Positions 1,502 to 31,638 of a stretch of DNA of 64,000 bases are shown here, in pieces (position 1 is the first letter of the stretch; each line of letters begins with the position of its first letter). The notes beneath the pieces are model-generated. The model saw nothing but the letters and a program-made list of their open reading frames with translations, was not told where the DNA came from and made no database searches. The position numbers were made by a program, and so were the translations under genes. Origin of the DNA: an uncultured Thermoleophilia bacterium (lineage in GTDB: Bacteria > Actinomycetota > Thermoleophilia > UBA2241). Location of the stretch: assembly GCA_963702475.1 (NCBI GenBank), contig CAVPCT010000009.1:96001-160000 (forward strand), written 5' to 3'.

Positions 1502-1540
1502 TCGCAGGCGCCGCCCCGGCATCCAACGAAATCCACTTGT

Positions 1541-1555
1541 CACTATACGATAGTG
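1541..1555. promoter_or_regulatory. Palindrome CACTAT-acg-ATAGTG, candidate operator
   Basis: Perfect 6-bp AT-rich inverted repeat between the IclR gene and the aminotransferase start. Confidence 0.4.
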
Positions 1556-1623
1556 CGGTATCATGTCCGCACCTCGGCCCACCGGCACGGGCCCGTCAGG
1601 CACCGTCAGATCAGGGAGACCTC

Positions 1624-3012: not shown

Positions 3013-3103
3013 GCCAGGCCGACGGGCGCACCACGGGCGGCGGGGCGTGAGGGGGCGCTCCGCCGCCCTTTCCGCCCACCGGCACCGCGAGGGGGAGGAC
3101 GGC

Positions 3104-6886: not shown

Positions 6887-7953
6887 TGGCCGTGCAGGTC
6901 AGGCCGGGCCCCTTCACGGGCCGCCTCTTCGCGCGCAAGGCCGTCGCCGCCCCCGCGGAGCAGAGCGGGGCGCGGGCCTGGGCGCTCAAGCTGCTGCCGC
7001 TGGTGATACTCGTCGCGCTCATGCTCCTCCTGCCCACGTTCGTGCCCTCGTACATCCAGAGTCTCATCACCAAGATGATGATCTTCGCGCTCTTTGGCGT
7101 GAGCATGAACATCCTCTGGGGCTACGCCGGCATCCCGACCTTCGGCCACGCCGCCTACTTCGGCTTCGGCGGCTACGCCTGCGGCATCCTCATCGTGCAC
7201 GGCGGCGTCGCCAGCTTCTGGCTCAACCTGGTGCTGGTCGTCGTGTTCACGGGCCTGCTTGCCGCCGGCCTCGGTATCCCGGCCTTCCGCGTGTACGGCG
7301 TCGGGGCGTCCGACAACCCGATCTACTTCCTGCTGGTCACCCTGGCCTTCGGGGAGCTCATGGTGCGCGTGGCGATCGCCGCGCGCTCGCTCACCGGCGG
7401 GTCCACGGGTTTGGCAGGCATCCCGTATCCGCAGGATGTGTTCCCCGGGGTCACCATCAACTCGCGGAGCTTCTACTTCCTCGTGCTGCTGGTCGTGGCC
7501 GTCTGTCTCGTCCTCATCTACAGGCTGGTCAACTCGCACTACGGGTACGCCCTGCGGGGCATCCACGACAACGAGCGCCGCATGCAGGCCCTGGGTTACA
7601 ACACGTGGCTGTACAAGTGGACGTCGTACATCATCGCCGGCGCGTTCGGCGGCATCGCCGGCGCCCTCTTCGCCTACTTCGGGGGGGTGATGGTGCCGGG
7701 CAACATGGGCATGGCGATGACCGACATCGTGTTCCTCATCGTCATCATCGGCAGCGCCTCCATCTACTTCGGCCCCATCGTCGGCGCCGTCCTCGTGGTC
7801 GGCGTCGAGTACCTGGCCAGCGTGTACGTGCCGGACCGCTGGCCGCTCATCATGGGCGCCCTCATCGTGTTCGTCATCATGATCATCCCGCAGGGTGTCG
7901 GCGTGCTGCTGCTGAACCTGTGGAGGAGGGTCTCTCATGGCACCGATTCTTGA
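6886..7953 (+). CDS. Branched-chain amino acid-type ABC permease (LivM-like)
   Basis: GYAGIPTFGHAAYFG, YFLLVTLAF, TGGSTGL, IHDNERRMQALG; TGATG coupling. Confidence 0.92.
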   Translation: MAVQVRPGPFTGRLFARKAVAAPAEQSGARAWALKLLPLVILVALMLLLPTFVPSYIQSLITKMMIFALFGVSMNILWGYAGIPTFGHAAYFGFGGYACGILIVHGGVASFWLNLVLVVVFTGLLAAGLGIPAFRVYGVGASDNPIYFLLVTLAFGELMVRVAIAARSLTGGSTGLAGIPYPQDVFPGVTINSRSFYFLVLLVVAVCLVLIYRLVNSHYGYALRGIHDNERRMQALGYNTWLYKWTSYIIAGAFGGIAGALFAYFGGVMVPGNMGMAMTDIVFLIVIIGSASIYFGPIVGAVLVVGVEYLASVYVPDRWPLIMGALIVFVIMIIPQGVGVLLLNLWRRVSHGTDS

Positions 7954-8703
7954 GGTACAGGACCTCTCCGTGCACTTCGGCGGCCTGGCGGCCGTCAAGG
8001 ACGTCACCTTCACCGTCGAGGAGGGCGAGCGCCTGGCCATGATCGGCCCCAACGGGGCCGGCAAGACCACGCTGTTCAACCTGCTCACCGGACAGCTCAA
8101 GCCGTCGGGCGGCAAGGTGCTGTTCAAGGGGCAGGACATCACCCACAAGCCCGTGTTCGCGCGCACCCAGCTCGGCATCGCGCGCTCGTTCCAGATCACC
8201 AGTCTGTTCCCCAACGAGACAGTGCGCGTCAACGCGCTCATCGCGCTGCAGGGCACGCGCAAGGGGCGTTACGGCGTGCTCGGGGCACGTTCCGGAAGGA
8301 CAAGCACTTGCGCGCAGCCGCCCAGGAGCTCCTCGAGTCCATCGAACTGTGGGACAAGCGCAACGAGTTCGTCAGCTCGCTCGCCTACGGCGAGCAGCGC
8401 AAGCTCGAGATGGGGCTCAGCCTGGCCAGCGCCCCGGAGCTGCTGCTCCTGGACGAGCCCAGCTGCGGGCTCACGCCCACCGAGAGCGCCGACATCACGG
8501 AGCGCATCCGGCAGCTCGGCAAGAAGATCACCGTGCTGATGATCGCCCACGACATGGACCTCGTGTTCGGCGTGGCCGAACGCATCATCCTGCTGCACTT
8601 CGGCGAGATCTCGTGCGAGGGCACCTGCGAGGAGATCCGCGCCAACCAGACCGTCAAGGACATCTACATGGGCTCGCACAAGGCGAGCACCGCGGGGAAC
8701 TGA
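7937..8703 (+). CDS. ABC ATPase (LivG-like), frameshift near 8280-8290
   Basis: Walker A GPNGAGKTT in 7937..8539; LAYGEQRKLE, LLLLDEP, AHDM in 8308..8703. Confidence 0.88.
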
Positions 8704-9997: not shown

Positions 9998-12610
9998 TCA
10001 GACCTGCTGCGCGTCCGGCAGGCGCTCCACCTGGATCAGCGCGGTGTTGCACGCCTGCCCCGGCGAGGTGGGCGTGATGAAGCGCTTCGGCGTCAGGATG
10101 TTGATGCAGCCGGCGAGGTCGGGCGAATGCCCCGGCTCGCCGGCCGGCTCGTAGTCGGCGCACGACTCGTAGCAGTGCACCGTGCCGGGGCGCACGCGCT
10201 CGGTCACGTAGGCGGCCAGGAGCACCTCGCCGCGGTCGTTGAAGGCGCGCACGAGGTCGCCGTGGGCGACGCCGCGCGCCTCCGCGTCCTCGCTGTTCAG
10301 GCGGATGATCCAGTAGTGCCGCCCGTCGTCCTTGAGCAGGCGGTGTTCTTCGATGTCCACAGCCCATGCGTCCTTGCCGTCGCCGTGCGTGTGGAAGCTG
10401 AAGCGCGGGTGGGGCGAGAGCAGCTGCAGCGGGTACCTCGCCGTGAGGTCGGCCGTCCGGTGGCCCTCCCAGCTCTCGATGTACTGGGGGCCCATGGCCG
10501 GGCGCTCGTCATCGACCACCTCGCCGCTCTCGTAGAACCGTGTGAGGCTCGAGCTCACGAACTCGATCTTGCCGGTGGTGGTCTGCAGGCCCTTGCGGCC
10601 CACGGTGTCCCACGGCGGCGGGCCCCAGTCCGGGGTGTCGCGCTCGCGGTCCTCGGCGAACCAGCGCAATGCCGGCGTCGAGCGGTGCGGCTCCGGCACC
10701 GGGACCACGTAGTAGCCCTTCTCATAGAACTCGTCCCAGGAGATGCGCTCGGGCAGGTCGCTGGCCTCGAAGATGCGCTTCGCCCAGTCCAGCTCCGTCA
10801 GCCCGCCCTCGGTGTAGATGTTGCCGATGCCCAGCTTGCCGGCCAGGGCCGCGAAGATCTCGTAGTCGGAGCGGGACTCGGCCAGCGGCTCGATGCACTT
10901 CTTCTGCAGGACGATGATCCTGTGGTTGACCTGCTCGAACTTGTGCGTGCCGTAGCCCGAGGCGTGCGCCCAGTCGCCGATGTCCCAGCGCTCGAAGTTG
11001 GTGCAGGCCGGCAGCACGATGTCGGCGAAGCGGGTCTCGCCCTCCATCCAGATGGCCTGGCTGACCACCGTCGGGATCATGCCCTCGCGGTAGGCGGTCA
11101 CGTAGCGGTTGGTCTCGGTCATGGTGCCGATGAACGAGCCCCCGTAGCGGTAGTACATCTGCACGTGGGGATAGCCGGGGGCGGGGTACTCGTACTTCTG
11201 GAACTGCGACTCGATGGACGAGCCGCAGAAGCCCTTGCCGTGCCACTGCAGCTTCTCGTGGCGCATGGCCTCGGGGATGCGCAGGCGGGGCACCGTCTGG
11301 CCCTCGGTGGAGTGCTGCGGGTTGCTGAGGAAGCCGCCGTTGGGCCACATGCGGCTGGCGAGCTGCTTGCCGGCGGCCGTCCCCGCTACGTCCCCGGAGA
11401 TGCCGCCCTCGGCGTAGCCGGGGAAGAAGAAGTCGGTGTCGAACGGCACGCCGCTCGTGGTGGACCAGAGGTTCTGGCCGGGCTTGCCGAGGCCCTGCAT
11501 GGCGACCAGGGCGATCATGGCGCGCGCCCACTCGTTGCCGCTGGAGGCGCGGCAGGCGCCGCCCCAGCCGCCCTGGCCGCCGGCGGCGAGCATGGTCTTC
11601 TTGCACGCCCAGGCGCGCGCCAGCGCGCGGATCTGGCGCGCCGGCACGCCGCACTCGTCCGCGGCCCAGGCCGCGGTCTTCGGCGTGCCGTCGCTCTCGC
11701 CCAGCACGTAGGCCTTCCACTCGCCGAAGCCGTGCGTGTGCGTGTGCACGTACTCGACGTCGTAGGTGCCCTCCATGAGCCACGTGTGGGCGATGCCCAG
11801 GGCCAGCGCCACGTCGGTACCCAGCCGCGGCGCCAGCCACGTGTCGCCGAGCAGCGCCGCGGTGTGGTTGTGGTACGGGTCGATGAAGACCATCTGCACG
11901 CCGAGCTGCTTGAGCCAGTCACGCCGCGAGGTGCTCTCGAACGAGGCGTACACACCGCCGGTGGTCTCGGGGTCGGACGACCAGAACACCATCAGCTCGG
12001 TGTGCCTGAGGGCGTCCTCGAGCATGTCGTACTGCTCGGGGATGCCGAGGCGGTGGCTGAAGCCCCACATGTGGACGCCGCCCCATTGCCAACCTTCCCA
12101 GCTGTCGGGGTTGTGCTCGCCGTAGGTGTAGCCGACGAGGTTCATGAAGCGGTTGTAGGCGCTGAAGCGGTAGCCCACGTTGCCCCAGAGATGGTGGGAG
12201 CCCGGCGTGGTGAGCATGCCGGCCGGGCCGACCTCGCGCTTGATGCGGACGATCTCGGCGGCCACGATGTCCAGGGCCTCGTCCCAGCTGATGGGCTCGT
12301 AGCCGGACTCGCCGCGGGTGTGGATGTTGCGGGCGCCGTCCGGGTCCCAGTCGACGCGCTTGAGCGGCGTGAGGATGCGCGACGGCGAGTAGATCGTCGA
12401 GCGATGGGCGACCGTCCAGGGCGAGAGCGTCGTCTTGCGCGGCGGCGAGAACGAGCGGCCGCGCGCCTGGATGGTCCAGGACGGCGCGTCGCTCTCGTCG
12501 AGCTGCAGCGGGATGATGCGTCGGATACGGCCGTCGGCCACGTCCACGTGCACGGGTCCGCCGGTGGTCAGATTGGTGAGGCGCCGGACCTCGGAGGTCG
12601 TTGCGGTCAT
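9998..12610 (-). CDS. Pyrogallol transhydroxylase large subunit-like Mo-bisPGD enzyme (most AthL-like copy)
   Basis: TPGSHHLWGNVGYR, NPDSWEGW, GGWGGACRAS, FPGYAEGGISGD, LPACTNFERWD, SPHPRFSFHT; no Tat signal, no N-terminal FeS motif. Confidence 0.9.
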   Translation of the reverse strand: MTATTSEVRRLTNLTTGGPVHVDVADGRIRRIIPLQLDESDAPSWTIQARGRSFSPPRKTTLSPWTVAHRSTIYSPSRILTPLKRVDWDPDGARNIHTRGESGYEPISWDEALDIVAAEIVRIKREVGPAGMLTTPGSHHLWGNVGYRFSAYNRFMNLVGYTYGEHNPDSWEGWQWGGVHMWGFSHRLGIPEQYDMLEDALRHTELMVFWSSDPETTGGVYASFESTSRRDWLKQLGVQMVFIDPYHNHTAALLGDTWLAPRLGTDVALALGIAHTWLMEGTYDVEYVHTHTHGFGEWKAYVLGESDGTPKTAAWAADECGVPARQIRALARAWACKKTMLAAGGQGGWGGACRASSGNEWARAMIALVAMQGLGKPGQNLWSTTSGVPFDTDFFFPGYAEGGISGDVAGTAAGKQLASRMWPNGGFLSNPQHSTEGQTVPRLRIPEAMRHEKLQWHGKGFCGSSIESQFQKYEYPAPGYPHVQMYYRYGGSFIGTMTETNRYVTAYREGMIPTVVSQAIWMEGETRFADIVLPACTNFERWDIGDWAHASGYGTHKFEQVNHRIIVLQKKCIEPLAESRSDYEIFAALAGKLGIGNIYTEGGLTELDWAKRIFEASDLPERISWDEFYEKGYYVVPVPEPHRSTPALRWFAEDRERDTPDWGPPPWDTVGRKGLQTTTGKIEFVSSSLTRFYESGEVVDDERPAMGPQYIESWEGHRTADLTARYPLQLLSPHPRFSFHTHGDGKDAWAVDIEEHRLLKDDGRHYWIIRLNSEDAEARGVAHGDLVRAFNDRGEVLLAAYVTERVRPGTVHCYESCADYEPAGEPGHSPDLAGCINILTPKRFITPTSPGQACNTALIQVERLPDAQQV

Positions 12611-13046: not shown

Positions 13047-15251
13047 TCAGGCTTTGCCGTATGTGGGCACCGTCCCGTAGTTCTCCGTGGTGAACACCTC
13101 GTCCTGCAGCTCCTCGGGCCTGGCCTTGTAGACCTTGCAGATGAGGCAGGTCATGTCCGGCGACCCGTACATGGGGTCGAGGTGGTCGTTGCTGGTGCAC
13201 ACGTTGGGGTTCGAGATGAACACGCCGTGGTACCCCTCTGCCGAGGCCTCGGGATAGAACCAGTTGGCGGTGCACATGATCATGCCCTTCTTGATCCCCG
13301 GGAACTCGTGCAGCTTCTGGCGGATGCGCCCGCGCTTGGTCTCGATCCAGATGATGTCGCCGTCTTCCACGTCGTACTTCTTCGCGGTCTCGGGGTGCAT
13401 CTGGCACTGCGGGAACTCCATGTAGCTGCGCAGCCAGGGGATGTTGCGGTACTGGCCCAGGAAGTAGAAGGGCTGGCGGAAGCCGGTGCTCATGACGACC
13501 GGGTACTCCTCGAAGAGCTCCGGCGTGCTCACCGGGCTCTCGCCCGGCTCGCGGAACACGGGCAGCGGGTCGTACCCGAGCGACTCCAGGTGCTTGGACC
13601 AGAACTCGAACTTCTTCGTGGGCGTCGGGAACCCGCCGCCCTCGTGCCAGTAGTCGGTCCTGTACTTGTAGTAGACCTGGTCGGGGCCCATGCACGCGCT
13701 GACGAGGTTCTGGCTGAAGTCCTTCCACTTCATGGTGCCGTCCATGCCCTTGCGCACCTGGTAGTCGAGCAGGTCGTCCGTGTTGTCGAACCACTTGTCG
13801 GTGACGCGCCGGCCGACCTCGTTGAAGATCCAGGCGTCCGACTTCGCCTCACCGGGCGGCTCGATGACCTTGTTGTGCGCCTCGATCATGAAACGCGGGT
13901 GCATGTCGTACACGTCGTCGAGCTCGAGCCAGTGGGCGGCCGGCAACACGATGTCGGCCGCCTCGGCCATCGGCCCCATGAAGAGGTCGGTGTGGCTCAT
14001 GAACTCGACCTTCTCGATGGCCGCCACGACCTCTTTGGTGTTGGCCATGTGCACGATCTGCTGGCCGCCGACGCTGAACCACACCCTGATCGGCGCCTCC
14101 CCGCGGTTGAGCGCCTTCACCATGGTGTCGGGGTTGCAGGTGCGGGCGGCGCCCATCTTGTACGTGTCGCCGCCGATGATGTGGCTCTTCATCTCGTCGG
14201 TGATCGGCAGCTCGAGGAAGAAGTCCTCGATGAGGCCGGTCTCGGGCAGCACCCACGTGATCATGCTGCCCGGCCTTTCGATGTTGCCGGTCAGGCCCAT
14301 GAGGCAGGTGATGGCGCGCAGCGTGTGGCCGCAGTTGGCCTGACGCTCCAGCGAGCTGCCCACCTGGATGCACCCCGGCGTGTCGACGGCCCATAGGCTC
14401 GGCGGCCTGCGTCACGTGTTCCCTGGGGATCCAGCAGATATCGGAGACCTTCTCCGGGCGTGAAGTCCCTGGCCCGCTCCCTGAGCTCGTCGAACCCATA
14501 GGTCCAGTTGTCGCACGAACTCCTTGTCCCAGAGCTCGTTCTCGATGATGTCGTTGATCATGCCCAGAGCCAGGGCGCAGTCGGTGCCCACCCGCGGCTG
14601 GATCCAGAGGGTGGCGCGCGAGGCGTAGGCGGACGCGCGCGGGTCGATGATGATCAGATTCTTGGCGTAGTCCAGCGAGTTCATGAACCAGTAGGCCATC
14701 TCGGAGTCGGCGCTGCTGATCTCCAGCTGCTTTGCCCACGAGATCTGGGTCTTGGGGAACTCGCCGCCCCAGCCGTGGTAATCGCAGTACAGGCGGCCGT
14801 AGCCCGTGACCAGGCCGTAGAGGCCGAGGCGTGGGCTGTGACACACGTAGCCGGGGGTGATGGCGTTGCCGGTGCCCAGCGAGCGCGCCATCTTCATGGT
14901 GTAGCGGTTGTAGCCGCGGCCGGTGCCCTGCGAGACGGCGATGGAGTGCGGGCCGGGGTCGGCGATCGCCGCCTTCATCTTGTCGGCGATGGTGTCGAGC
15001 GCCTCATCCCAGGTGATGCGCTCCCACTTGCCGCTGCCCTTGGGCCCGACGCGCTTCATCGGGTGCTTGATGCGGTACGGGTTGTCGATGTGCTGGATGC
15101 TCGAGAGACCCTTGGAGCACATGGTGCCCCGGGTGGTCGAGTCCGGGTTGCCCTGGATGTGGACGATGACGTCGTCTTCCAGAGTGACGATCACCCCACA
15201 GCCGCCGTGGCAGCTCTTGCACGTCGTCAGGACTTGCCTACGTTCACCCAT
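13047..15251 (-). CDS. Mo/W-bisPGD oxidoreductase, acetylene hydratase/catechol dehydroxylase-like; frameshifts near 14380-14520
   Basis: N-terminal CKSCHGGC..CSKG [4Fe-4S] motif, RIKHPMKR, ITWDEALD, TPGYVCH (candidate Cys ligand), ADIVLPAAHWLE, MHPETA. Confidence 0.85.
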
Positions 15252-15281
15252 TGTCTCTCTCCTGACAGGTCGTGGCCGCCA

Positions 15282-16261
15282 TCACGCGACCTTCGGGAGG
15301 ACGGACCGGTAGATGCCGACCTTGAGCACCGAGTACTTCAGCGCGAACGCGCCGACGGTGTGGCCGATGATGGCCACGATGAGCAGGCCCTCGGTGTGGC
15401 TGCCCATGGCCAGCGTCGCGAACGAGATGACCAGCGGCGTGATGATGCCCAGGAGCACGAGCAGGATCCAGAAGACCCAGCTTCTGGCTGCCCTTGATGA
15501 GGTCGTTGGCCGCCACCTCGGCGGCGGAATGCCGCCGGTAGGCGCGGAGCAGGTACCCGGCGATGAGCAGGGCGTTGGCGATGAGGAAGATGCGGCTCCA
15601 CGTCTCGAGCGTGCCGATGACGATTCGTCGGCGCCGCCCGTGGCGAGGTTGACGCCCATGGCCAGCGCCAGGCCGTCGGCGAAGCCCATCAGCACGAACA
15701 CGAGAGGCAGCAGGCCGGTGTTCCAGAACTGCAGGCCCTTGCAGTAGCTCATGGCGAACCCGCAGTAGGCGCCGGTGAGCACCATGAAGACGCCGGCGAT
15801 GATGCCGGTGATCCACGAGAGCACCGACAGCGTGGACACGGCCGAGGCTCCCAGGTCGCCCCAGAGCAGGAAGCCCCAGAACACGAGCTGGAGGAAGCCG
15901 AACCCACGAAGATGGTCGTGAACACCACGCCGCGCGCCATCCACGACGTCTTCCACGCCTTGCTGAACGGCGGGAAGGCGCGCCAGAAGCGGAGCGGCTT
16001 GCCGAGGTAGAAGAGGTGCAGGGGGAACTTGAACAGGACGATCATGAGCCAGCCGGCGACGGTCGCCCAGAACGCCCAGGCGGTGATCTCCCAGGCGCCG
16101 GCGATGAGACCGACCAGGTAGGTGCCCATGCCGAGCGCCGAGAAGACCTCGGCCAGCCACACCATGAGGCCCTTGCCGGCGATCCACTCGGTCTGCCGCA
16201 TGGGCTTGACCATCCACTCGTGGGTGGTGATCCACTGGCGGCGGGTCTGGACCTTGGTCAT
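15282..16261 (-). CDS. NrfD/PsrC/DmsC-like membrane anchor, frameshifted
   Basis: Multiple hydrophobic helices; HLFYLGKPLRFWRA..SWMARG, FWNTGLLP; lies between FeS subunit and Mo enzyme. Confidence 0.75.
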
Positions 16262-17049
16262 GACGTCACCTCCGCCTCGTCCGGGTCGCGGCCGTAGATG
16301 CGCCGGTAGGCGTCACGGTCGACGGTGCTGAGGTGCTGGAGGTGGCTGCCGGTCTGCGCCTCGCGCGGCGCCTTGTTCGACGGCGCGCCGCCCAGCTTGT
16401 AGTCGACGTACCACACCGACGGGTCGGTGGCGTACTCAGTGCGCAGCTGGAATCCCCCACGGTCGCGGATGAGCCGCGACACGTTGCTCTCGGGGTCGTC
16501 GAGGTCGCCGAACGTGAGGGCGCGCGCCTGGCAGGTGTTGACGCACGCCGGGGTGGCGTCCCTGTCGATGCCGGGCAAGAGCCCCCTGGACATGCCGTCG
16601 TCGATGCGCTCCGCGCAGAAGTTGCACTTCTCCGTGGTGCCGCGCTGGTGCGGGTAGAGCTTCTCTCCCGCCTTCTCGAACCTGGTCTTCTCGAAGCCGG
16701 GAAAGTACCCCGGGTCCTTGTCCTTGGAGACGAAGGTGCGGTTCTGGTACGGGCAGGCGATGACGCAGTACCGACAGCCGATGCACTTGTCGTGGTCGAT
16801 GACGACGATGCCGTCCTCGCGCTGGTGTGACGCCTCGGTGGGGCAGGCGTGCACGCACGGGGCGTCGGAGCACTGGTTGCAGCGCACCGGGTACGTGCTG
16901 ACGTCGACGGCGCCCTGCTCGTCCACCTCATAGGCGATGAGTTTCACCCAGGTGATGTGCAGCGGCAGGAAGTGCTCGATCCTGCACGCGGCCACGCAGG
17001 CGTGACAGCGCATGCACTTCGCCAGGTTGATGACCATTCCCCATCTCAT
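16258..17049 (-). CDS. 4Fe-4S dicluster protein (DmsB/NrfC-like)
   Basis: CMRCHACVAAC, CNQCSDAPCVHACP, CIGCRYCVIACP, KCNFC..PACVNTC, FGDLDDP. Confidence 0.9.
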   Translation of the reverse strand: MRWGMVINLAKCMRCHACVAACRIEHFLPLHITWVKLIAYEVDEQGAVDVSTYPVRCNQCSDAPCVHACPTEASHQREDGIVVIDHDKCIGCRYCVIACPYQNRTFVSKDKDPGYFPGFEKTRFEKAGEKLYPHQRGTTEKCNFCAERIDDGMSRGLLPGIDRDATPACVNTCQARALTFGDLDDPESNVSRLIRDRGGFQLRTEYATDPSVWYVDYKLGGAPSNKAPREAQTGSHLQHLSTVDRDAYRRIYGRDPDEAEVTS

Positions 17050-17078
17050 GGGCAGTCTCCCGTGGTCGGGGTGCGGGC

Positions 17079-17888
17079 CTACCGCGTCAGGGGGACGTCG
17101 CCAAGGCTGACGTCCTTGTCGGTCTGGACTTCGCAGGTGGCCGGCGCGAACCCGTCCGCGGCGATGGTGACCGCGTACGTGCCTTCCTCGAGCCCGTGGA
17201 GCCAGAAGTCGCCGAACGCGTCGGTCTGCGTCGAGCACGACGCGCCGTCGGCCGCCGTGGCTGTGACGGTGGCGCCGACCACGACCTCCTTTTCGGCCGG
17301 GTCGTACACCGTGCCGGCGATGAACCTCTTCGGGACGTTGAGGTAGTACACCCGCGGCTTGGTGCCGGCCTCGGGCTTCTTGACCTGCGCCTGCGCGATG
17401 AGGTCGGCGAACTCGTCCTGGTCGCCGAACTTGAGCGCGCCGGTGGGGCAGGAGTCCACACAGCGCGGGGCCTCCCAGCCGCCGTCCAGCAGGTGGGCGC
17501 AGCCGGTGCACTTCTGCGCCAGGTTGAGGTCTTCGTTGAAGGAGATAGCGCGGTACGGGCAGGCATCGACGCAACTCCTGCAGCCGGTGCACCTGTCGGT
17601 GTCGATGACGACCAGGCCGTCGTCGCGCTTGTACATCGCGCCCTCGACCTTGCACGAGGCCATGCAGGGCGCCTCGTCGCAGTGGTTGCAGTGGTTGGCG
17701 ACGTAGTGCATGCGCACCTGCGGCACCTGGCCGCAGATGTGCTCGTCCACGCGCATCCAGAACTGGCCGTAGTCGGGTTGCGGTTTGGCGATGGGGGCCC
17801 AGTCGTTGCCCACGTGCTCGTCCTTGCAGGCGAACTGGCAGCCGAAGCAGCCGTTGCAGATGCCGACGTCCACGATGAACGCTTTCAT
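17079..17888 (-). CDS. Transhydroxylase small subunit-like FeS protein (16 cluster Cys) with C-terminal beta-sandwich
   Basis: CNGCFGCQFACKDEH, CNHC..PCMASC, CTGCRSCVDACP, CTGC..CVDSCP; TDAFGDFW..L..GTY tail. Confidence 0.88.
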   Translation of the reverse strand: MKAFIVDVGICNGCFGCQFACKDEHVGNDWAPIAKPQPDYGQFWMRVDEHICGQVPQVRMHYVANHCNHCDEAPCMASCKVEGAMYKRDDGLVVIDTDRCTGCRSCVDACPYRAISFNEDLNLAQKCTGCAHLLDGGWEAPRCVDSCPTGALKFGDQDEFADLIAQAQVKKPEAGTKPRVYYLNVPKRFIAGTVYDPAEKEVVVGATVTATAADGASCSTQTDAFGDFWLHGLEEGTYAVTIAADGFAPATCEVQTDKDVSLGDVPLTR

Positions 17889-20518
17889 CAGTCGTTACCT
17901 CCGTCGACCACCCAGCCGTTGAAGCGCAGACCGGCGCCGGGGTCGTACTCGCGGGCGAAGGCCTCGGGGTGCTCGGTGCGCCACTGCTCCCACTCCTCGG
18001 GCCTGATCTTCTGCACGTCCACGAGGTAGCCGCTGGTGGCCTGGCCGCAGGCGTTCTTGGACGTCAGGCCGTGCGGCGCGATGGTGTTGATTGCGCCGCC
18101 GCGGTCGACCTTGCCGGGGATGATGGGGTCGTGCCGGGCGCCGTGGTCGATGTACGTCACGCCCGGCATCATGCGCTCCCACACGCAGGCGCCGGCGAGC
18201 ACGATGCCGCGCTCGTTGAAGATCTTGACGATCTCGCCGTGCCTGATACCGCGCTCCTCGGCGTCCTTTGGGTTCAGCCACACGGGCTCGTAGTTGTAGT
18301 TGTCGGGACCCAGCACCTTGCCGGTCGGGGTCTCGCGCGCCCACGTACAGTCGTCGCCCTGGGCGTGCGTGCGCCAGCGCGGGTGGTTGCTCATGAGGAT
18401 GAGCGGGAACATGTCGGCGCGCTCGCTGGAGAGCCGCTCGTCGTGCGTGATGCCCTTCTCGATCCACTTGGGGATCCCGGGGCGCTCCTTGTCGTCGGGG
18501 AAGTGCGTGGCAAGGCGATCCGAGTAGAACTCCAGCAGGCCCGACGGGGTCTTGAGCGGGTTGTTCTCAGGGTCCTCGTAGAACCTGCGCAGGCCGGGCG
18601 GGTCCTGCTCCCAGTCCTTCGCAGTGGGGTAGACGATGTACTGCTTCTCCTTGAACTCCTCCCAGGTCATGTACTCGGGACCGTACATGCACTCGAAGAC
18701 CTCACGCTGCAGGTCCTCGTTGCTCTTGCCAAGGGTGAGCTTCTCCTTGTAGCCGAGCTTCTCGGCCACCGCGAGCACGATCTCATAGTCGCTCATGGAC
18801 TCGCCCACCGGCTCGATGGCCTTCTCCGTCAGCATGCAGGTCTGGTACGGGGGACCCTGGCGGACGTTGGTGAGGCAGTCGTCGACTTCCATGGTGGTGT
18901 TGGCCGGCAGGATGATGTCGGCGTAGAGGCAGTCGTTCTCGAGCCACGGGTGCTGCGCGACCATGAACTCGATGCTCGGGTCGCGGTGCGCCTCGATGGT
19001 CCAGTTGCCGTGGTTCCAGCAGGTGATGCGGCACGGCGTGTCGGTCCAGATCATGTGCAGGCGGCTGCCGCCCTCCTCTTCTGGCTCCGGGAACCGGTAG
19101 TCGATGAACTGGTCCTCGGTCTCGGCGTTCTGCGCGCCGGTGCCGGCGAAGTGGATGGTCTCCGGGTTGAGGATGGCCTCCTGGATGAGCGTCTTGGGGA
19201 CGTTCTGCGTGCCCCAGGCGTCCACGCTGCTGCGGACCGGCGTGCGCAGGTGCTCGCTGAGGGTGGGGTTGAAGTAGCGGAAGTTGTCGAGCGCCTCCGC
19301 GCGCGGCATGCCGAAGTAGGAGAACTGCCACTGGTGCACGCCGGGGCCGCCGAGGCCCTGCATGCCGAGCAGGATGCACTCCAGGCGGCCGGGTTCGTGG
19401 GAGTACGGGCCGCGGACCATGGAGCCGCCGAAGTAGTGCAGGATCGAGGTGCACTGCTTGGCGAACTCGCGGGCCAGCGCCTTGATGGTCCACTCGGGGA
19501 CGGCGGTCTTCTTCGCGGCCCACTCGGGCGTCTTGGGCACGCCGTCTTCTTCACCGAGCACGTAGGCCGCGACCTTCTCCATGCCGACGGCGTGGCTCGC
19601 GACGTACTCCTTGTCCCAGGTGTCTTCCTTGAGCCACACGTAGATGATGGCCAGCTGCAGGGCGGCGTCGGTGTTGGGCAGGATCGGGATCCACTTGTCG
19701 GCGTGCACCGCGGCGCCGAAGTTGAGCTCGGGGCAGATGTAGACCTGCTTGATGCCGACCTTGGTGAAGAAGTAGGAGATGTTGGTGGCGTTCTGGCCGG
19801 TGAAGCCCCAGGGCGTGGTCTCGTCGTCACAGCCCCACTTGAGGACGAGGTCGCAGTTCTCCACCACGTCCTTGAGGACGTTCAGCTGGGGCGCCATCAT
19901 GCCCTGGAAGCCGTGGCCCCAGACGTGCTTGGAACCCCAGTACCAGCCCTCCCAGCTGTCGGGCTGGCGGACCTGCAGGGTGAAGCCGCCCATCTCGTTC
20001 ATCAGGCGGCCGTTGTGGCCGTGCGGCGTGTGGATGGTCTTGCTCTCGCCGTGGCCGTCGGCCTGGAGGAGGATCGCGTTGAGCCCGTAGGTCTTCTGGA
20101 TGCGCCGGATCTCCGCGGCGATGATGTCGGTGGCCTCGTCCCACGAGATGCGCGCGTACTTGCTCACGCCGCGGTTCTGCGGGTTGCGCTCGCCGTTCGG
20201 GTCCCAGTCCACGCGCTTCAGCGGGTACTTGATGCGGTTGGGGGAGTAGGTGCGCTTCTTGTACGCCGTCATGTAGGGGGCCGGACGGGACCTGGATCCC
20301 GGCTCCAGCGTGTGGCCGTTGCGTTCGAGCTTCCACGGGCGGAAGGTCTCGGCGTCGTACTTCCAGTCGTACTGGAACGGCCGGATACGCACGATCTTGC
20401 CGTCCTTGACGTCGACCATGACCTCGCCGGTGCCGCCGAGGAGGCCGCCCTGCGACAAGGCCCGGAGGACGGTCTTGTCGGGGGTCACATCCACGTTCTT
20501 GCGCGAGTCCTCACTCAT
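17888..20518 (-). CDS. Transhydroxylase-family Mo-bisPGD large subunit, 'DGHG' subtype
   Basis: RIKYPLKRVDWDP, QADGHGESK, QPDSWEGWYWG, RGPYSHEP, ADIILP, SNHPRWRTH. Confidence 0.88.
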   Translation of the reverse strand: MSEDSRKNVDVTPDKTVLRALSQGGLLGGTGEVMVDVKDGKIVRIRPFQYDWKYDAETFRPWKLERNGHTLEPGSRSRPAPYMTAYKKRTYSPNRIKYPLKRVDWDPNGERNPQNRGVSKYARISWDEATDIIAAEIRRIQKTYGLNAILLQADGHGESKTIHTPHGHNGRLMNEMGGFTLQVRQPDSWEGWYWGSKHVWGHGFQGMMAPQLNVLKDVVENCDLVLKWGCDDETTPWGFTGQNATNISYFFTKVGIKQVYICPELNFGAAVHADKWIPILPNTDAALQLAIIYVWLKEDTWDKEYVASHAVGMEKVAAYVLGEEDGVPKTPEWAAKKTAVPEWTIKALAREFAKQCTSILHYFGGSMVRGPYSHEPGRLECILLGMQGLGGPGVHQWQFSYFGMPRAEALDNFRYFNPTLSEHLRTPVRSSVDAWGTQNVPKTLIQEAILNPETIHFAGTGAQNAETEDQFIDYRFPEPEEEGGSRLHMIWTDTPCRITCWNHGNWTIEAHRDPSIEFMVAQHPWLENDCLYADIILPANTTMEVDDCLTNVRQGPPYQTCMLTEKAIEPVGESMSDYEIVLAVAEKLGYKEKLTLGKSNEDLQREVFECMYGPEYMTWEEFKEKQYIVYPTAKDWEQDPPGLRRFYEDPENNPLKTPSGLLEFYSDRLATHFPDDKERPGIPKWIEKGITHDERLSSERADMFPLILMSNHPRWRTHAQGDDCTWARETPTGKVLGPDNYNYEPVWLNPKDAEERGIRHGEIVKIFNERGIVLAGACVWERMMPGVTYIDHGARHDPIIPGKVDRGGAINTIAPHGLTSKNACGQATSGYLVDVQKIRPEEWEQWRTEHPEAFAREYDPGAGLRFNGWVVDGGND

Positions 20519-20564: not shown

Positions 20565-21423
20565 TCAGACGGTTGACTCGGATGCAGGCCGGGACTGGTT
20601 CCAGCCGAGGTAGGCGGAGAGGGCGGCGGCCGTCTCCCGCACCGCCGCGGTGCAGAGCTCGCGCTCCTCGGGGCCGAAGCGACCCGAGGGCACGGCGACG
20701 GAGAGGGCCGCGACGACGGTGCCGAGCTGGTCGCGGACGGGGCAGCCGACGGAGCACACACTTTCGAAGAGGCCTTCGATGTCGTAGGCGACGTCGTCCC
20801 GCACGATGTCGTCGAGCTGCCTGCGCCAGAGCCTCGGGATCTGTGACGGTGTACGGCGTGTGTTTGCGCCGCGGCCGCGCGAGGATCTCGGCGCGCCTGT
20901 CGGGCGGCGCGAAGGCGGTGAAGATCTTGCCGTGCACGGCGGCCAGGTCGCCGATGATGCGGCCGGGCGCGATCTGCCGCTGGAACGGGCGCGCGGAGTC
21001 GATGATGCCCGCGCACACGGGCACGCCGTCGACCGGGATCGCGAGGGTGACCGACTCGCCGGTGGTCTCGACGAGCTCCTCGAGGAACGGCCGCGCGAGA
21101 TCGACGAAGTCGGAGTTGTCCTCGGCGACGTAGCTCAGGGCGATGGCGGCAGGCCCGAGGTGGTAGGTGTTCGTGGTGGCGTCGCGCACGAGGAAGTCGG
21201 CGCCTTCGAGCGTGCGCACCATGCGATAGGCGGTCATGCGCAGCAGGCCGGTGCGCGCCGCGATGTCGTCGATGGACCACTCGCGGTGCTCGGCGTCGAA
21301 CAGCGAGAGGATGGAGAGGCCGCGCGCGAGCGCGCGCACGGTGAGCGGGTCGTGCTCCGGCGTACGTTGGCTCCGCCGCCCGGACGCTCCTGGTCCCGCA
21401 ACCTGCGTCGTCGCGCCCGTCAT
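20565..21423 (-). CDS. IclR family regulator, frameshift near 20810-20825
   Basis: VRALARGLSILSLF..RMTAYRMVRTL; C-terminus CSVGCPVRDQ..PSGRFGPE in 20565..20804; paralog of 653..1501. Confidence 0.88.
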
Positions 21424-21612
21424 GCCGTCCCCCGTCCCGACTCTTGCGCGTGAAAACGATACGGGAGTACCATTGTGGGCAAGGGCGCTCCGATATCGCC
21501 GTTGCTATCAGACGATATCAGCGTTTCCACGCATTGCAAGATGTCTGACGCGAATGTGGCCCGCCCGGCACGTGCGGGCGGCTGCGGTGAAGCCGGTTGG
21601 GGAGGTGCGTGC

Positions 21613-24147
21613 ATGACTGAGCAGGTGTTCACCAATCTGACGAACAACGGTCCCGTCACGGTGTACGTCAAGGACGGCGTGGTGACGCGGGTGCGCCCGC
21701 TGGTCGCCGACGAGTCCGAGTTCAGGCCCTGGGTGATCGAGGCGGACGGCAAGGAGTACTCGCCGCCCAGGAAGTTCAACGTGGCGCCGATGGTGCTCGC
21801 CGAGCGCCGGCGCCTCTACTCCGACGACCGCATCAAGTACCCGATGAAGCGCGTCGACTTCGATCCCGACGGCGAGCGCAACCCGCAGAACCGCGGCAGG
21901 TCGGCCTACGAGCGCATCTCCTGGGACGAGGCGCTCGACCTCGTCTCCGGCGAGATCGCGCGCGTGAAGAAGAAGTACGGCAGCTCCGCGATCAGCGGCA
22001 TGACGTCGTCTCACCACAACTGGGGCATCGTCGGCTACAAGATGGGCCCCTTCATGCGCTTCATGAACTGCCTCGAGGCCACCCCCGTGTTCGACAACCC
22101 GGACAGCTGGGAGGGGTGGCACTGGGGCGCCACGCACACCTACGGGTTCTACTGGCGCCTGGGCATGCCCGAGCCGTTCGACAACCTCCAGGACGTGATG
22201 AAGAACTCCGAGATGATCGTCTTCTGGTCGAACGACCCGGACACCACGCGCGGGACGTACTCGGGGCAGGAGTCGGCCATCTGGCGCACGTGGCTCCACG
22301 AGAAGGGCGTCCAGGCCGTCTTCATCGACCCCTTCCACAACTACACCAACGCCATCTTCTCCGACGCCAAGTGGATCGCGCCGCGCATGGGCACCGACAC
22401 CGCGCTGGCCATGGCGATCGCCTACGTGTGGATCACCGAGGACACCTACGACAAGGAGTACGTCGCCGAGCGCACCATCGGCTTCGACGAGTTCAGGCCC
22501 TACGTGCTCGGCGAGACCGACGGCGTGCCCAAGACGCCCGAGTGGGCGGCGGAGGAGTCGGGCGTCGACGCGCGCGTCATCCGGACGCTCGCGCGCGAGT
22601 GGGCCGAGCAAGCGCACCGCGCTCGCGGCCGGCGCGCGCGGCGGCGAGGGGAGCGCCTGCCGCACCGCCTACGGCACAGAGTGGGCCCGCATGATGGTGC
22701 TCCTCCAGGCCATGCAGGGTCTGGGCAAGCCCGGCATCACCATCGGGGGCGTCTCCATGGGCGCGCCGGCCGAGTTCGACACCTGGTTCCCCGCCTACGC
22801 CGAACCGCGCGGCCGCATGTCGCACTCGACGGTGGCCGCCAAGTACATCCCGCAGAACTCCACGAAGCAGCGGCTCTACAGGCTCACCGTGCCCGACGCC
22901 ATCCTCGACGGGCACGTCGAGTGGTGGGGCGCCGGCTTCTGCGGCCAGTCGCTCGAGCAGCAGTTCGAGCACTTCGTGTACCCCGCCGAGGGCTGCTCCG
23001 AGATCAAGCTCTGGTACCGCTACGGCGGCTCGTTCATGGGCACCATGAGCGACACCAACAAGTGGGTGCGCATGTACCAGAGCCCCAAGCTCGAGTTCGT
23101 CGTGAACCAGGACATCTGGTTCAACAGTGAGACGACGATGGCCGACGTGATCCTGCCGGCCTGCACCAACTTCGAGCGCGACGACCTCGGCGAGTTCGCC
23201 GCCTGCGGCGGCTACACGACGAACTCGCACTCCGGCAACAACTACCGTGTCATCGTCCGCGAGCAGAAGTGCATCGAGCCCCTCTGGGAGTCGCGCTCGG
23301 ACTACCAGATCCTCGCGGCGACTCGCCGAGCGCCTCGGCATGTACGACGAGTTCACCGACGGCGGCAAGACCGAGATCGACTGGGCCAAGGCGTTCTACG
23401 ACGCCTCCGACCTGGCCAGGACGCTGGACTGGGAGACCTTCAACGAGAAGGGCTACCACATCATCAGCGCCCCCGAGCGGTACGAGCCCAAGCCGTGTCT
23501 GCGCTGGTTCGCCGAGGGCCGCGCCTGCGACACGCCCGACACCGGCAACCCCAAGCGCAACATCCCGGAGAAGGCGCACGAGCTCGGCACCTACAGCGGC
23601 AAGATCGAGTTCTCCTCCGAGAGTCTCAAGGCGCACTTCCCCGACGACCAGGAGCGCCCGGTCTCGCCGAGGTACATCGAGAGCTGGGAGGGACACCACA
23701 CCACCGAGCTCTTCGAGAAGTACCCGCTGCAGCTCATGTCGCCGCACCCGCGCTTCTCGTTCCACTGCCACTACGACAAGCACACCGACTGGCTCGACGA
23801 CATCCCCGTCCACCGCATCAAGAAGGACGGGTACGCGTGGTGGCCGGCAAGGCTTCACCCCGCGGACGCCGACGCGAGGGGCATCCGCAACGGCGACCTC
23901 GTGCGGCTGTACAACGACCGCGGGTCGGTGCTCTGCGCCGCGGTGGTCACCGAGCGGGTCCGGCCCGGGCATCATCCACAGCTACGCCTCGTCGGCCAAG
24001 TACGACCCGCTCGAGCCGGGCAAGTCCGACTCCATCGACAAGGGCGGCTGCGTGAACGTGCTCACGCCGTCGCGCATGCTGAGCAAGCACGCGCCCGGCA
24101 TGACGCCCAACTCGTGCCTCATCGACGTCGAGAAGTGGGAGGGCTGA
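21613..24147 (+). CDS. Transhydroxylase-family Mo-bisPGD large subunit, 'SSHH/GGEG' subtype; frameshifts near 22610, 23320, 23965
   Basis: TSSHHNWG, NPDSWEGWHWG, LPACTNFER, SPHPRFSFH, GCVNVLTPSR spread over consecutive frames; ATG after GGAGG. Confidence 0.88.
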
Positions 24148-24151
24148 TCCG

Positions 24152-24986
24152 ATGACCCGTCTCGGTCTGCTCATCGATGTCACCAGGTGCAGCGGCTGCT
24201 ACAACTGCTTCCTCGCCTGCCGTGACGAGCACTACGGCAACGACTACCCGGGCTACTCCGCGCCGCAGCCCCTGTACGACCACTTCTGGCTGAAGATCAA
24301 CGAGGTCGAGGGCGGCCGCTACCCGCGCCCCCGGCTCAACTACATCGCCGTCCCGTGCCAGCAGTGCCAGGACGCGCCGTGCATGGCTGCCGCCAAGGAC
24401 GGCGCCGTGTACCGTCGCGCCGACGGCATCGTGATGATCGACCCCGTGAAGGCCAAGGGGCAGGACCAGATCGTCGCCTCCTGCCCGTACCGCGTCATCT
24501 CCTGGAACGAGGAGCTGGAGCTGCCGCAGAAGTGCGGCTTCTGCGCGCACCGTCTGGACGAGGGCGAGAAGGTGCCCCGCTGCGTCGAGGCCTGCCCGAC
24601 CGGCGCCATGGCCTTCGGCGACCTCGACGACCCGCAGTCGGAGATCTCGCTGCGGCTCAAGGAGGTCTCGCCGAGGTGTTCCACCCCGAGTACGAGACCG
24701 GAGCCGAACGTGCTGCTACGCCGGCCTGCCGGGGCGCATGGTGGCCGGCGAGGTCGTGCTCGAAGGCGCCGACGCGTGCGCCGCCGGCGTCAAGGTCACC
24801 CTCAAGGGTGACGGTGAGACGTGCGAGACGCGATCGGGCGTGTTCGGCGACTTCGCCTTCGAGAAGCTGCCGAGGGGCAGGACATACCGCGTCACCGTGG
24901 CGCACGAGGGCTACGCCACGCTGTCGTGCGAGGTGCGGACCCACACCGACGTCGACCTCGGCCAGGTGGTGCTGGCGAAGGCGTGA
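24152..24986 (+). CDS. BthL-like FeS small subunit (12 cluster Cys), frameshifted near 24670-24720
   Basis: CSGCYNCFLACRDEH, CQQC..PCMAAA, KAKGQDQIVASCP, CGFC..CVEACP; FGDFAFE..Y.V tail in 24738..24986. Confidence 0.85.
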
Positions 24987-25062: not shown

Positions 25063-25226
25063 TGCCTTCGCGGCCGATGACCCCCGATCTCACGACGGAG
25101 CTGCGTGCAACTCCGCGCCCAGGGCGCGCGCCGAAGCGCCGATGTGCTTGAGCGTGGGGTTGCCGTGCCGGCTCTCGATGCGTCAGCGTGTGCTCGTCGG
25201 GAGGACCGCGTCGTATGATGAATACC

Positions 25227-25547
25227 ATGAACGCGGAGCGTCAGCTGGTTGAGGAGGTCGTCGAACGCCTGCGCGCCGTCGCGGCGCCGGCGCGCGGGAT
25301 CCTGTTCGGCTCGATGGCCATGGGCAGCGCGACCAAGGACAGCGACCGCGATCTCCTCATCCTCTTTGATGCCGTCGCCGACCCGCGTCGTGAGAGCGTC
25401 CGCTTGCGCGAGGCACTGGGCGACATCGACATGCCGGTGGACGTGATCGTCATGACGACGTCGCGTTTCGACGAGACGAAGGACGTCATCGGCGGCATCG
25501 CGTACCCCGCCAACAAGTACGGGAAGGTCATCTATGAGGCCGCCTGA
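25227..25547 (+). CDS. Minimal nucleotidyltransferase (MNT antitoxin)
   Basis: ILFGSMAMG..DSDRDLL, PVDVIV; overlaps a HEPN gene; start could be 25215 or 25218. Confidence 0.85.
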   Translation: MNAERQLVEEVVERLRAVAAPARGILFGSMAMGSATKDSDRDLLILFDAVADPRRESVRLREALGDIDMPVDVIVMTTSRFDETKDVIGGIAYPANKYGKVIYEAA

Positions 25548-26870: not shown

Positions 26871-26908
26871 CGTCTCGCCCTCCTCGGAACGCCCCGATGA
26901 TAGCAGAC

Positions 26909-26955
26909 TTGACAGGGAAAAAGCTAAATGACTACCATCTATGCAATTGGTGGTC
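26909..26955 (+). promoter_or_regulatory. Putative promoter TTGACA-N18-TACCAT overlapped by imperfect palindrome GACTACCA..TGGTGGTC
   Basis: Perfect -35 hexamer at 26909; TGGT/ACCA-type repeat resembling FadR-subfamily operators, next to the divergent FadR gene. Confidence 0.5.
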
Positions 26956-26988
26956 GACGACCGGCGCAGGTCGGGACGGGAGGGGCGC

Positions 26989-31628: not shown

Positions 31629-31638
31629 GAGGCGCGAG

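Follow-up and report, generated by a model that had tools for sequence, protein, structure and literature searches.

We have analyzed a stretch of 64,000 nucleotides (nt) of DNA from an uncultured Thermoleophilia bacterium, an actinobacterium of soil or sediment type (contig CAVPCT010000009.1), called the window throughout. On its minus strand, between positions 13047 and 20518, lie five closely spaced genes for the subunits of two different molybdenum (Mo) enzymes. The first two, alpha1 and beta1, are related to the large and small subunits (AthL and BthL) of pyrogallol hydroxytransferase, the transhydroxylase of Pelobacter acidigallici. They are followed by genes for an iron-sulfur (FeS) subunit, an NrfD-type membrane anchor and a catalytic subunit related to acetylene hydratase (the Mo subunit), which together are called the trio. 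The run is real, conserved and uncharacterised, and its mechanism is unproven. We tentatively suggest that it encodes two Mo enzymes of the cytoplasm that belong to a single anaerobic pathway for polyhydroxybenzenes, a hydroxylase coupled to a dehydroxylase, with a link to menaquinone. The observations that led to this suggestion concern the anatomy of the genes, their family relationships, the cytoplasmic orientation of the proteins and the neighborhoods conserved in related loci.

The five genes are as follows, in gene order.

17888–20518, minus strand: alpha1, an AthL-like, Ser-ligated Mo-bis(pyranopterin guanine dinucleotide) (bisPGD) subunit of the DGHG clade; 876 amino acids (aa); Pfam Molybdopterin, Molydop_binding and AhtL-like_1st (PF21423)
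17079–17888, minus strand: beta1, a BthL-like FeS subunit in which all four Cys groups are complete; Pfam Fer4_11 and a C-terminal Ig-like CarboxypepD_reg domain
16258–17049, minus strand: DmsB/PsrB-type four-cluster FeS subunit of a membrane enzyme; Pfam match and four Cys groups
15282–16261, minus strand: NrfD/PsrC-type eight-helix quinone anchor, interrupted by three insertions or deletions (indels); Pfam NrfD on the window fragment and on an intact orthologue
13047–15251, minus strand: Mo subunit, acetylene-hydratase-related, with a Cys-ligated Mo/W-bisPGD; 735 codons; Pfam Molybdop_Fe4S4, Molybdopterin and Molydop_binding

The successive junctions are a 1-nt overlap, a 29-nt gap, a 4-nt ATGA overlap and a 30-nt gap. 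A preliminary description of the window had reported such a packed run, consisting of a DGHG alpha, a four-cluster beta, DmsB-like and NrfD-like proteins and a Mo subunit with a CxxCHxxC motif, and all five genes were found where it had placed them.

The two molybdoenzymes and the membrane module

Of 2533 candidates scored in a search with the C-terminal 454 aa of the Mo subunit, 1083 were relatives. The 120 best of these are 63–100% identical and mostly 710–750 aa in length. Their source labels are metagenome-assembled genomes (MAGs) of Thermoleophilia, Desulfobacteraceae, Dehalococcoidales, Chloroflexi and Proteobacteria, and their names are generic only. A search of a protein atlas likewise returned only generic molybdopterin clusters, and with the Mo, alpha, beta, FeS and NrfD proteins every NCBIfam model stayed below its curated cut-off. 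When a profile of 17 full-length relatives was compared with the PDB, acetylene hydratase (2e7z) was the best match over the whole length (E 1.4e-112, 380 bits), followed by FdhF (231 bits), formate dehydrogenase H (224) and thiosulfate/polysulfide reductase (216). Because the score with acetylene hydratase so exceeds those with FdhF and thiosulfate reductase, the Mo subunit, judged against solved structures, does not sit with the formate or nitrate reductases.

The N-terminal [4Fe-4S] motif of the Mo subunit comprises C11, C14, C18 and C45, invariant in 17 of 17 relatives. Its sequence CKSCHGGC aligns with CQSCDINC of 2e7z, placing His15 on an Asp of the hydratase; the Asp following the second Cys of the FeS motif is catalytic in acetylene hydratase. 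The CxxCHxxC motif is likewise invariant in all 17. Cys137 aligns with the metal-ligand Cys of 2e7z (chain position 138) and is followed by H-S-P-R, against I-G-N-T in the hydratase; H15, C137, H138, S139, P140 and R141 are each found in 17/17 relatives. The preliminary description had pointed to His in place of the catalytic Asp, which the alignment and the invariance bear out, and a grouping with formate or nitrate reductases, which would have spoken against its reading, is not what the bit scores show. The invariance of His15, Cys137, His138 and Arg141, with His replacing residues of the hydratase, suggests that the substrate site is polar and not hydrophobic.

The Mo subunit shares with the acetylene hydratase of Pelobacter acetylenicus the CxxCxxxC FeS motif, the aligned ligand Cys, a length of about 730 aa and a cytoplasmic location. 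It differs in having His for Asp and a second His after the ligand Cys, and in that members of its family are invariably accompanied by a four-cluster FeS protein and almost always by an NrfD anchor, while acetylene hydratase is, as the title of its structure paper has it, reportedly a stand-alone non-redox enzyme. Since the Asp is absent and partner subunits are present, the Mo subunit is, by its sequence, not an acetylene hydratase. Excerpts of PMC7028382 report that a group of bis(molybdopterin guanine dinucleotide) enzymes, the catechol dehydroxylases (Dadh, Hcdh, Cadh and Gp Hcdh), is closest to acetylene hydratase; these enzymes, from Eggerthella and Gordonibacter, have hydroxylated aromatics as substrates. 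[quoted passage not shown] The present family resembles it in subunit build, through its co-encoded four-cluster FeS subunit and anchor. According to the excerpted accounts, the E. lenta enzymes carry twin-arginine translocation (Tat) signals and Hcdh has 1193 aa, whereas the Mo-subunit family has 735 aa and no Tat signal; the Gordonibacter type has 770 aa and just two subunits, whereas the present family has an anchor.

The FeS subunit of the trio has its best PDB matches in the ArrB-like chain 6cz7_B and in PsrB (2vpw_B). It begins with an MRWGMVI-like sequence in 25/25 orthologues; the four Cys groups are invariant, the C-terminal extension is conserved, and there is no signal peptide. The anchor has eight hydrophobic helices. 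Its loops contain on average 15.6 Lys and Arg residues on the N-terminal side of the membrane and 0.3 on the other, with the bias present in 25/25 sequences, so that by the positive-inside rule both termini are cytoplasmic. No Tat signal was found on any of the four soluble subunits, which start within a few residues of the first Cys motif or domain. The Mo subunit in the window begins nine residues before its first Cys, which leaves no room for a Tat signal, and the corresponding distance is no more than about 20 residues in 17/17 relatives. The lack of Tat signals and the charge bias of the anchor together have a straightforward reading, that the trio forms a complex facing the cytoplasm, an orientation already proposed in the preliminary description.

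Enzymes of the Psr/Phs/Nrf type are built from a Mo subunit, a four-cluster FeS subunit and a quinone-binding NrfD/PsrC protein of 8–10 helices (PMC13059093, excerpt). The trio has the same three-part build, and chains of 2vpw are among the best matches for all the soluble parts. In contrast to these enzymes, the trio has no Tat signal and an anchor with cytoplasmic termini. Psr/Phs/Nrf-type enzymes are exported and act on the periplasmic side of the membrane; among known enzymes, the sulfite dehydrogenase SoeABC faces the cytoplasm.

Turning to the other enzyme, alpha1 matches the large subunit of pyrogallol hydroxytransferase (4v4c_A) with E 1.9e-131 and 443 bits. The next-best PDB families, the reductases of dimethyl sulfoxide (DMSO) and of trimethylamine N-oxide (TMAO), reach about half of this (DMSO reductase, 225 bits). 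The protein has no N-terminal FeS motif. It keeps the sequence PDSWEGW, aligned with D174-S175-W176 of AthL, and the Ser of this PDSW motif is the Mo ligand of the transhydroxylase. The active-site stretch of alpha1 reads DGHGESKTIHTP, against SSHHMWGNVGYR in AthL, where the residues of this stretch have functional roles; only the His aligned with His144 is kept. DGHGES stands in place of SSHHMW, and T-P in place of Y-R.

beta1 matches the small subunit 4v4c_B with 169 bits. It has all 16 Cys of four clusters, invariant in 25/25 orthologues, whereas the crystallised BthL is without one CxxCxxC and one Cys of another group. alpha1/beta1 is thus like AthL/BthL in its Ser ligand, its aligned His, the Ig-like domain of its beta subunit and its cytoplasmic location, and unlike it in the DGHGES stretch, the four complete Cys groups and the linkage to a membrane molybdoenzyme. 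Because the active-site stretch differs and the beta subunit is four-clustered, alpha1/beta1 is, as far as sequence can tell, not a classical transhydroxylase. Excerpts of PMC10100899, together with PMC10084136, describe the resorcinol and 3,5-dihydroxybenzoate hydroxylases (RhLS/RehLS and DbhLS) as net-oxidising, AthL-like anaerobic ring hydroxylases, and the former also lists the resorcinol hydroxylases as Ser-ligated and cytoplasmic. Since beta1 keeps the full four-cluster electron wire, alpha1/beta1 would be a true redox hydroxylase of this kind.

The window contains five AthL-like alphas, at 9998–12610 (alpha2), 17888–20518 (alpha1), 21454–24152 (alpha3), 54668–57235 and 57894–60782 (alpha4 and alpha5); a BthL-like beta comes after four of the five. 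In a tree, the 53 AthL-like alphas of the window and related loci separate into two clades with an SH-like approximate likelihood-ratio test (SH-aLRT) support of 100. Clade II (36 rows) comprises alpha1, alpha5 and every trio-adjacent alpha outside Thermoleophilia, and clade I (17 rows) comprises alpha2, alpha4 and the alpha3 type. A DGHGE motif is found in 36/36 rows of clade II, and an SHH-type motif in 16/17 rows of clade I; alpha2, alpha3 and alpha4 are of the classical SHH kind, alpha1 and alpha5 of the DGHG kind. The PDSW motif is kept in 52/53 alphas. The alpha4/beta4 and alpha5/beta5 genes stand in tandem beside genes for a LysR regulator, an acyl-CoA dehydrogenase and electron-transfer flavoprotein (ETF). 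No beta gene accompanies alpha2 in the window or in related Thermoleophilia loci (L001:12331-14961); alpha2 may borrow beta1 or the FeS subunit, or act alone. A protein of 1016 aa, P0125, is 93% identical to alpha1 and carries IclR_C ahead of its AhtL domains. Rather than being a true fusion, this protein most likely arose by reading through from the IclR gene into alpha1 on a related contig.

Conservation and neighboring genes

A scan of one genome per species with a 17-sequence alignment matched 371 stretches, of which 219 encode a relative of the Mo subunit. All locus counts below refer to the best 80 of these 219 relatives, with flanks of 10 kb. A gene for the FeS subunit lies directly upstream in 76/76 loci having at least 1.9 kb of upstream sequence, and an NrfD-like gene lies between the FeS and Mo genes in 77 of the 79 loci with any upstream sequence. 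The two remaining loci, L058 and L060, keep the FeS, Mo, alpha and beta genes but show no NrfD-like gene over their full 22 kb.

Taking at least 55% identity to alpha1 as the threshold, we found a DGHG-clade alpha/beta adjacent to the trio in 33/80 loci, upstream in 9, downstream in 23 and convergent in 1. All nine upstream cases, which include the beta gene as in the window, are Actinomycetota. The 23 downstream cases lie directly after the Mo gene on the same strand, and are from Thermodesulfobacteriota (12), Acidobacteriota (3) and others; by phylum label, this arrangement is present in 12/13 Thermodesulfobacteriota and 3/4 Acidobacteriota. Where both flanks are complete (at least 5.5 kb upstream and 3 kb downstream; n = 55), 25 loci have a DGHG-clade alpha. 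The co-occurrence may extend beyond adjacency, since two Chloroflexi MAGs with the trio also have an alpha1 relative of 69–71% identity listed under the same MAG names.

The six-gene order of the window recurs in loci L001, L006, L008, L013, L015 and L065. A gene of the alpha2 type lies downstream in 9 related Thermoleophilia loci, and the divergent alpha3/beta3 pair is present in 8 related loci. The MAGs that carry the module bear the labels Thermoleophilia, other Actinomycetota, Desulfobacterales, Desulfatiglans, Acidobacteriota, SAR324 and Dehalococcoidales, and its proteins are 63–89% identical among the relatives listed. Its recurrence in related loci of several phyla argues that the arrangement is not due to chance, and the existence of two independent arrangements across phyla points to selection on the linkage. 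The expectation that the gene order would be conserved elsewhere has therefore held up. The connection to Eggerthellaceae that had been drawn earlier has not, as the relatives belong to Thermoleophilia and other environmental lineages, and an origin in that family is ruled out by the lineage labels of the related loci. In one Chloroflexota locus (L076:3332-8039) a divergent AthL-like alpha/beta pair with a long branch in the tree stands immediately upstream of the trio, next to a gene for a NarJ-type chaperone (Nitrate_red_del).

A number of the related loci contain genes resembling those of phloroglucinol degradation. According to the excerpted PMC10470551, phloroglucinol reductase is a short-chain dehydrogenase/reductase (SDR), dihydrophloroglucinol cyclohydrolase is a Mn-dependent enzyme of the cyclase family, the next dehydrogenase resembles 3-hydroxyacyl-CoA dehydrogenases, and triacetate lyase belongs to the BKACE family. 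Counting neighbors over the 80 loci at a query coverage of at least 60%, we found an SDR in 25, a 3HCDH-type gene in 21, a BKACE gene in 11 and a pair of cyclases in 5. At least one such gene lies within 10 kb in 28/80 loci, 7 of which also have the alpha/beta pair. Locus L060 (6513-19260) has a divergent IclR gene and a co-directional string for SDR, cyclase, cyclase, FeS, Mo, DGHG alpha, beta and a tripartite ATP-independent periplasmic (TRAP) transporter, and in L021, L030 and L061 the trio is flanked by IclR, SDR, BKACE and 3HCDH-type genes. A role in the metabolism of hydroxylated aromatics, suggested in the preliminary description, gains support from these neighbors.

In three Chloroflexota loci (L067:12417-18115, L072:12187-15067 and L076:12232-18308) the trio is followed on the same strand by genes for an FAD oxidoreductase accompanied by a small Fer4 protein, a UbiA prenyltransferase, a UbiE-like methyltransferase and a pair of radical-SAM proteins. 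The set looks like one for menaquinone biosynthesis by the futalosine route, and would fit a link of the trio to quinone. In L072 a cytochrome b561-like gene comes directly after the Mo gene.

Neighbors that the window has in common with related loci include genes for a class III aminotransferase, MoaF, an ATP-binding cassette (ABC) transporter, a GntR/FCD regulator, an ADP-forming acyl-CoA synthetase, a 2-oxoacid oxidoreductase, a glyoxalase and EthD. Some of these occur in recurring groups. Next to the trio, Actinomycetota loci (L021:742-6927, L030:2768-7481 and L061:1-3875) repeatedly have genes for a class III aminotransferase, MoaF, alanine dehydrogenase and an aldehyde:ferredoxin oxidoreductase of the tungsten type, which look like a set for the catabolism of primary amines; the oxidoreductase is present in 11/80 loci, and the window holds the aminotransferase and MoaF at 1282-3919. 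A conserved block near the trio in several Actinomycetota loci encodes the GntR/FCD regulator, the ADP-forming acyl-CoA synthetase, a fused 2-oxoacid:ferredoxin oxidoreductase and a glyoxalase-fold protein (window 26143-32109; L020:13546-21165; L021:14172-19390; L061:13996-19606). The window also contains small genes of mobile or addiction type, for a nucleotidyltransferase (NTP_transf_2/Polbeta, 25152-25544), an IrrE/Peptidase_M78-like protein (45856-46980) and an Unstab_antitox protein (63538-63999, at the window end).

Extent of the run and state of its reading frames

The run exceeds the five genes. An IclR gene stands at its head, and alpha2 and a terminator-like hairpin at its tail.

20565–21423, minus strand: IclR-type regulator heading the run, frameshifted; HTH_IclR and IclR_C (profile positions 6–109) in one frame, IclR_C (92–173) in another
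9998–~12610, minus strand: alpha2, another AthL-like alpha, classical SHH type, with no accompanying beta; Pfam AhtL-like_1st, 83.8 bits
9916–9948, minus strand: terminator-like hairpin directly after alpha2; 15-bp stem with 14 GC pairs
21454–24983, plus strand: divergent alpha3/beta3 pair of the classical AthL-like type; Pfam pieces in different frames

The true stop of the IclR gene is about 46 nt upstream of alpha1, the same layout being found in locus L001, and alpha2 lies about 436 nt downstream of the Mo gene. We found no terminator-like site on the minus strand between 20518 and 9998. A promoter scan gave one promoter-like site, at 12692-12663 on the minus strand, and the count was no higher than in shuffled sequences. 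An Rfam scan of the whole window, whose G+C content is 66–73%, gave no family at the gathering score, and hence no Mo cofactor or other riboswitch. The spacing of the genes and the lack of terminator-like sites inside the run suggest that it is co-transcribed as an IclR-led operon.

The reading frames of two of the genes are broken. By comparison with six orthologues, the NrfD gene is missing one nucleotide (~15902) and has gained two at 15627-15626 and one at 15487. The Mo gene, compared with six intact orthologues, has three 1-nt insertions (~14514, ~14459 and ~14397) and has lost one codon in frame. Pieces of both genes in the correct frame still encode conserved protein; tblastn with the proteins of L001 gave 84% identity over 735 aa for the Mo subunit and 87.5% over the first 120 aa of NrfD. 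In locus L001 all six genes are intact, with a 325-aa NrfD orthologue at L001:8990-9967. Indels are not confined to the operon. At least seven functionally unrelated genes of the window have Pfam domains split between frames; these include the IclR gene, alpha3 (in three frames in the assembly) and beta3 (in two), together with the following, each identified from its Pfam domains.

7916–8700: ABC ATPase, frame-split
26143–27101: GntR/FCD regulator, frame-split
28260–31625: 2-oxoacid:ferredoxin oxidoreductase, frame-split
50244–51438: ETF-alpha, frame-split

Since these unrelated genes are broken in the same way and the orthologues are intact, the indels in the anchor and Mo genes most likely reflect sequence error and not decay. 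The alternative is that the operon is decaying in this genome, the six indels being real, with only alpha1/beta1, the FeS protein and alpha2 functional. It would explain why all six lie inside 1.6 kb and in two neighboring genes, while the flanking alpha1, beta1, FeS and alpha2 genes are unbroken. We nevertheless regard decay as unlikely, given the frame breaks elsewhere in the window, the conserved protein still encoded apart from the indels, and the comparable split genes that related long contigs (e.g., L003, L005, L009, L025, L058 and L065) show at other positions.

Electron transfer and function

How might the two enzymes work together? In the reading that we tentatively prefer, alpha1/beta1 would hydroxylate its substrate, introducing OH from water and releasing two electrons, and the trio would be a quinol-linked reductive dehydroxylase of the catechol-dehydroxylase kind. 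The electrons released by alpha1/beta1 would be used by the trio, either directly through the FeS subunits or by way of menaquinone at the anchor. The net result would be a shift of a hydroxyl group, for example from pyrogallol or hydroxyhydroquinone through a tetrahydroxybenzene to phloroglucinol. The 1,3,5-substituted product could then be reduced by an NADPH-dependent SDR and cleaved by enzymes of the phloroglucinol pathway. The substrates, the direction of electron flow and any physical contact between the enzymes are inferred. That the Mo enzyme of the trio acts as a reductive dehydroxylase is suggested by analogy with its gut relatives, as excerpted in PMC7028382.

A shared electron module for the two Mo enzymes, as proposed in the preliminary description, is a plausible hypothesis. 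In L058 and L060 the alpha/beta is the only other redox partner encoded in the string, and because these anchor-less loci have no further redox partner there, they hint at direct electron exchange; the absence of the anchor from the two loci is probably a single evolutionary event. A complex prediction for the FeS, NrfD and beta proteins of L001 (25-row alignments, beta as partner) gave values of 0.01 and 0.06 against a mark of 0.32, which is neither support nor counter-evidence. The nearest precedent for both kinds of enzyme in one aromatic cluster is the 3,5-dihydroxybenzoate operon of Thauera aromatica AR-1, within which, in the excerpted text of PMC7028382, lies a putative dehydroxylase homologue needed for normal growth. 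The 3,5-dihydroxybenzoate route of T. aromatica is an oxidative pathway of nitrate reducers, with a hydroxyhydroquinone dehydrogenase that has a DoxX-type membrane subunit (PMC10084136). This oxidative hydroxyhydroquinone pathway was considered as a home for the trio and ruled out because its membrane subunit is of the DoxX type. Full-text literature searches found, among the papers covered, no description of the present pairing, though a comparable one may be described in Thauera or Aromatoleum, and no paper containing both "phloroglucinol" and "NrfD".

Several observations weigh against a coupled pair in a phloroglucinol-forming pathway. The trio lacks an adjacent alpha/beta pair in 30/55 fully flanked loci, including 15/15 of those from Chloroflexota, and so is a self-sufficient enzyme. 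All 80 loci were picked by way of the Mo subunit, so that the counts cover DGHG-clade alphas near a trio; in the window itself one member of that clade, alpha5, lies 37 kb away. Within the 64-kb window we found no SDR orthologue and no BKACE, 3HCDH-type or cyclase gene, and the Actinomycetota blocks are without a cyclase gene. No NCBIfam model reached its cut-off for the neighbor proteins, so that the match to the pathway is at family level. With the Kce model the BKACE protein scores 288, where the cut-off is 382, and with that of the 3,5-dioxohexanoate transferase 206, where it is 430. The best solved relative of the L060 SDR is gluconate 5-dehydrogenase, and PDB searches with that SDR and the L060 cyclase returned no named phloroglucinol enzyme. 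Lastly, the six indels in two adjacent genes could be a real inactivation.

In another arrangement, which we consider somewhat unlikely, the enzymes serve the same pathway without sharing electrons. The trio would be a stand-alone menaquinol-dependent reductase or dehydrogenase, with alpha1/beta1 a soluble enzyme of the transhydroxylase type acting before or after it. The trio has all three parts of a complete quinone-linked molybdoenzyme; that it is often alone, and is accompanied in Chloroflexota by menaquinone-biosynthesis-like genes, argues that it is such an enzyme in itself, and many of the lone trios adjoin phloroglucinol-pathway-like genes without any alpha/beta. This would leave the four-cluster wire of beta1 in need of a redox partner, for which the operon encodes no other candidate, and the anchor-less loci L058 and L060 retain FeS and Mo genes beside alpha/beta. 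At the other extreme, all five proteins might form one membrane-associated supercomplex, a split transhydroxylase in which two wired Mo centers carry out a redox-neutral isomerisation. The alpha/beta would hydroxylate with water, two electrons would cross both four-cluster subunits to the Mo subunit, which would strip off the neighboring hydroxyl, and the NrfD anchor would use the menaquinone pool merely as a redox buffer. We think this closer association unlikely.

The polarity could also be reversed, with the trio oxidising a cytoplasmic aromatic substrate, as a water-dependent hydroxylase or a dehydrogenase, and feeding menaquinone, while the alpha/beta enzymes are hydroxyl-transfer or reducing partners. 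A cytoplasm-facing NrfD layout would suit the delivery of electrons from a cytoplasmic substrate to quinone, the menaquinone-biosynthesis-like genes adjoin the trio in the three Chloroflexota loci, and acetylene hydratase adds water (PMC10100899, excerpt). What makes this reversal improbable is that those redox relatives of acetylene hydratase that have been characterised remove hydroxyls reductively, in the excerpted PMC7028382, while the known anaerobic ring hydroxylases of the superfamily, as excerpted in PMC10100899, are of the Ser-ligated RhL/PgtL type to which alpha1 also belongs. Least probable of all is that the substrates are unrelated or non-aromatic, such as S- or N-oxides or inorganic oxyanions, and that these are respiratory or detoxifying molybdoenzymes within a catabolic island. 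The labels of the relatives are indeed generic (TMAO reductase, S/N-oxide reductase-like, anaerobic dehydrogenase), no curated family reached its cut-off, and the Desulfobacterota neighborhoods otherwise consist of housekeeping genes. Yet the 443 bits of alpha1 with the transhydroxylase compare with 225 for DMSO reductase, beta1 has the C-terminal domain specific to BthL, 28/80 loci have phloroglucinol-pathway-like genes, and IclR regulators and organic-acid transporters are present.

Plant polyphenols have been thought to persist in waterlogged soil, peat and sediment, where oxygen-dependent phenol oxidases are inactive, and anaerobic routes for polyphenols are known for only a few substrates (PMC10470551, excerpt). 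If the coupling of hydroxylase and dehydroxylase that we favor is correct, the anaerobic polyphenol toolkit beyond the gut would gain a dehydroxylase with a link to quinone and ring hydroxylases of a new clade, and the DGHG motif on the one hand, and CxxCH with the C-H-S-P-R signature on the other, would serve as two markers for annotation. It would also offer a testable case of two molybdoenzymes sharing electrons, and a supercomplex, if formed, would be a new architecture among the complex iron-sulfur molybdoenzymes. Annotations as "pyrogallol hydroxytransferase" in environmental genomes span at least two functionally distinct clades.

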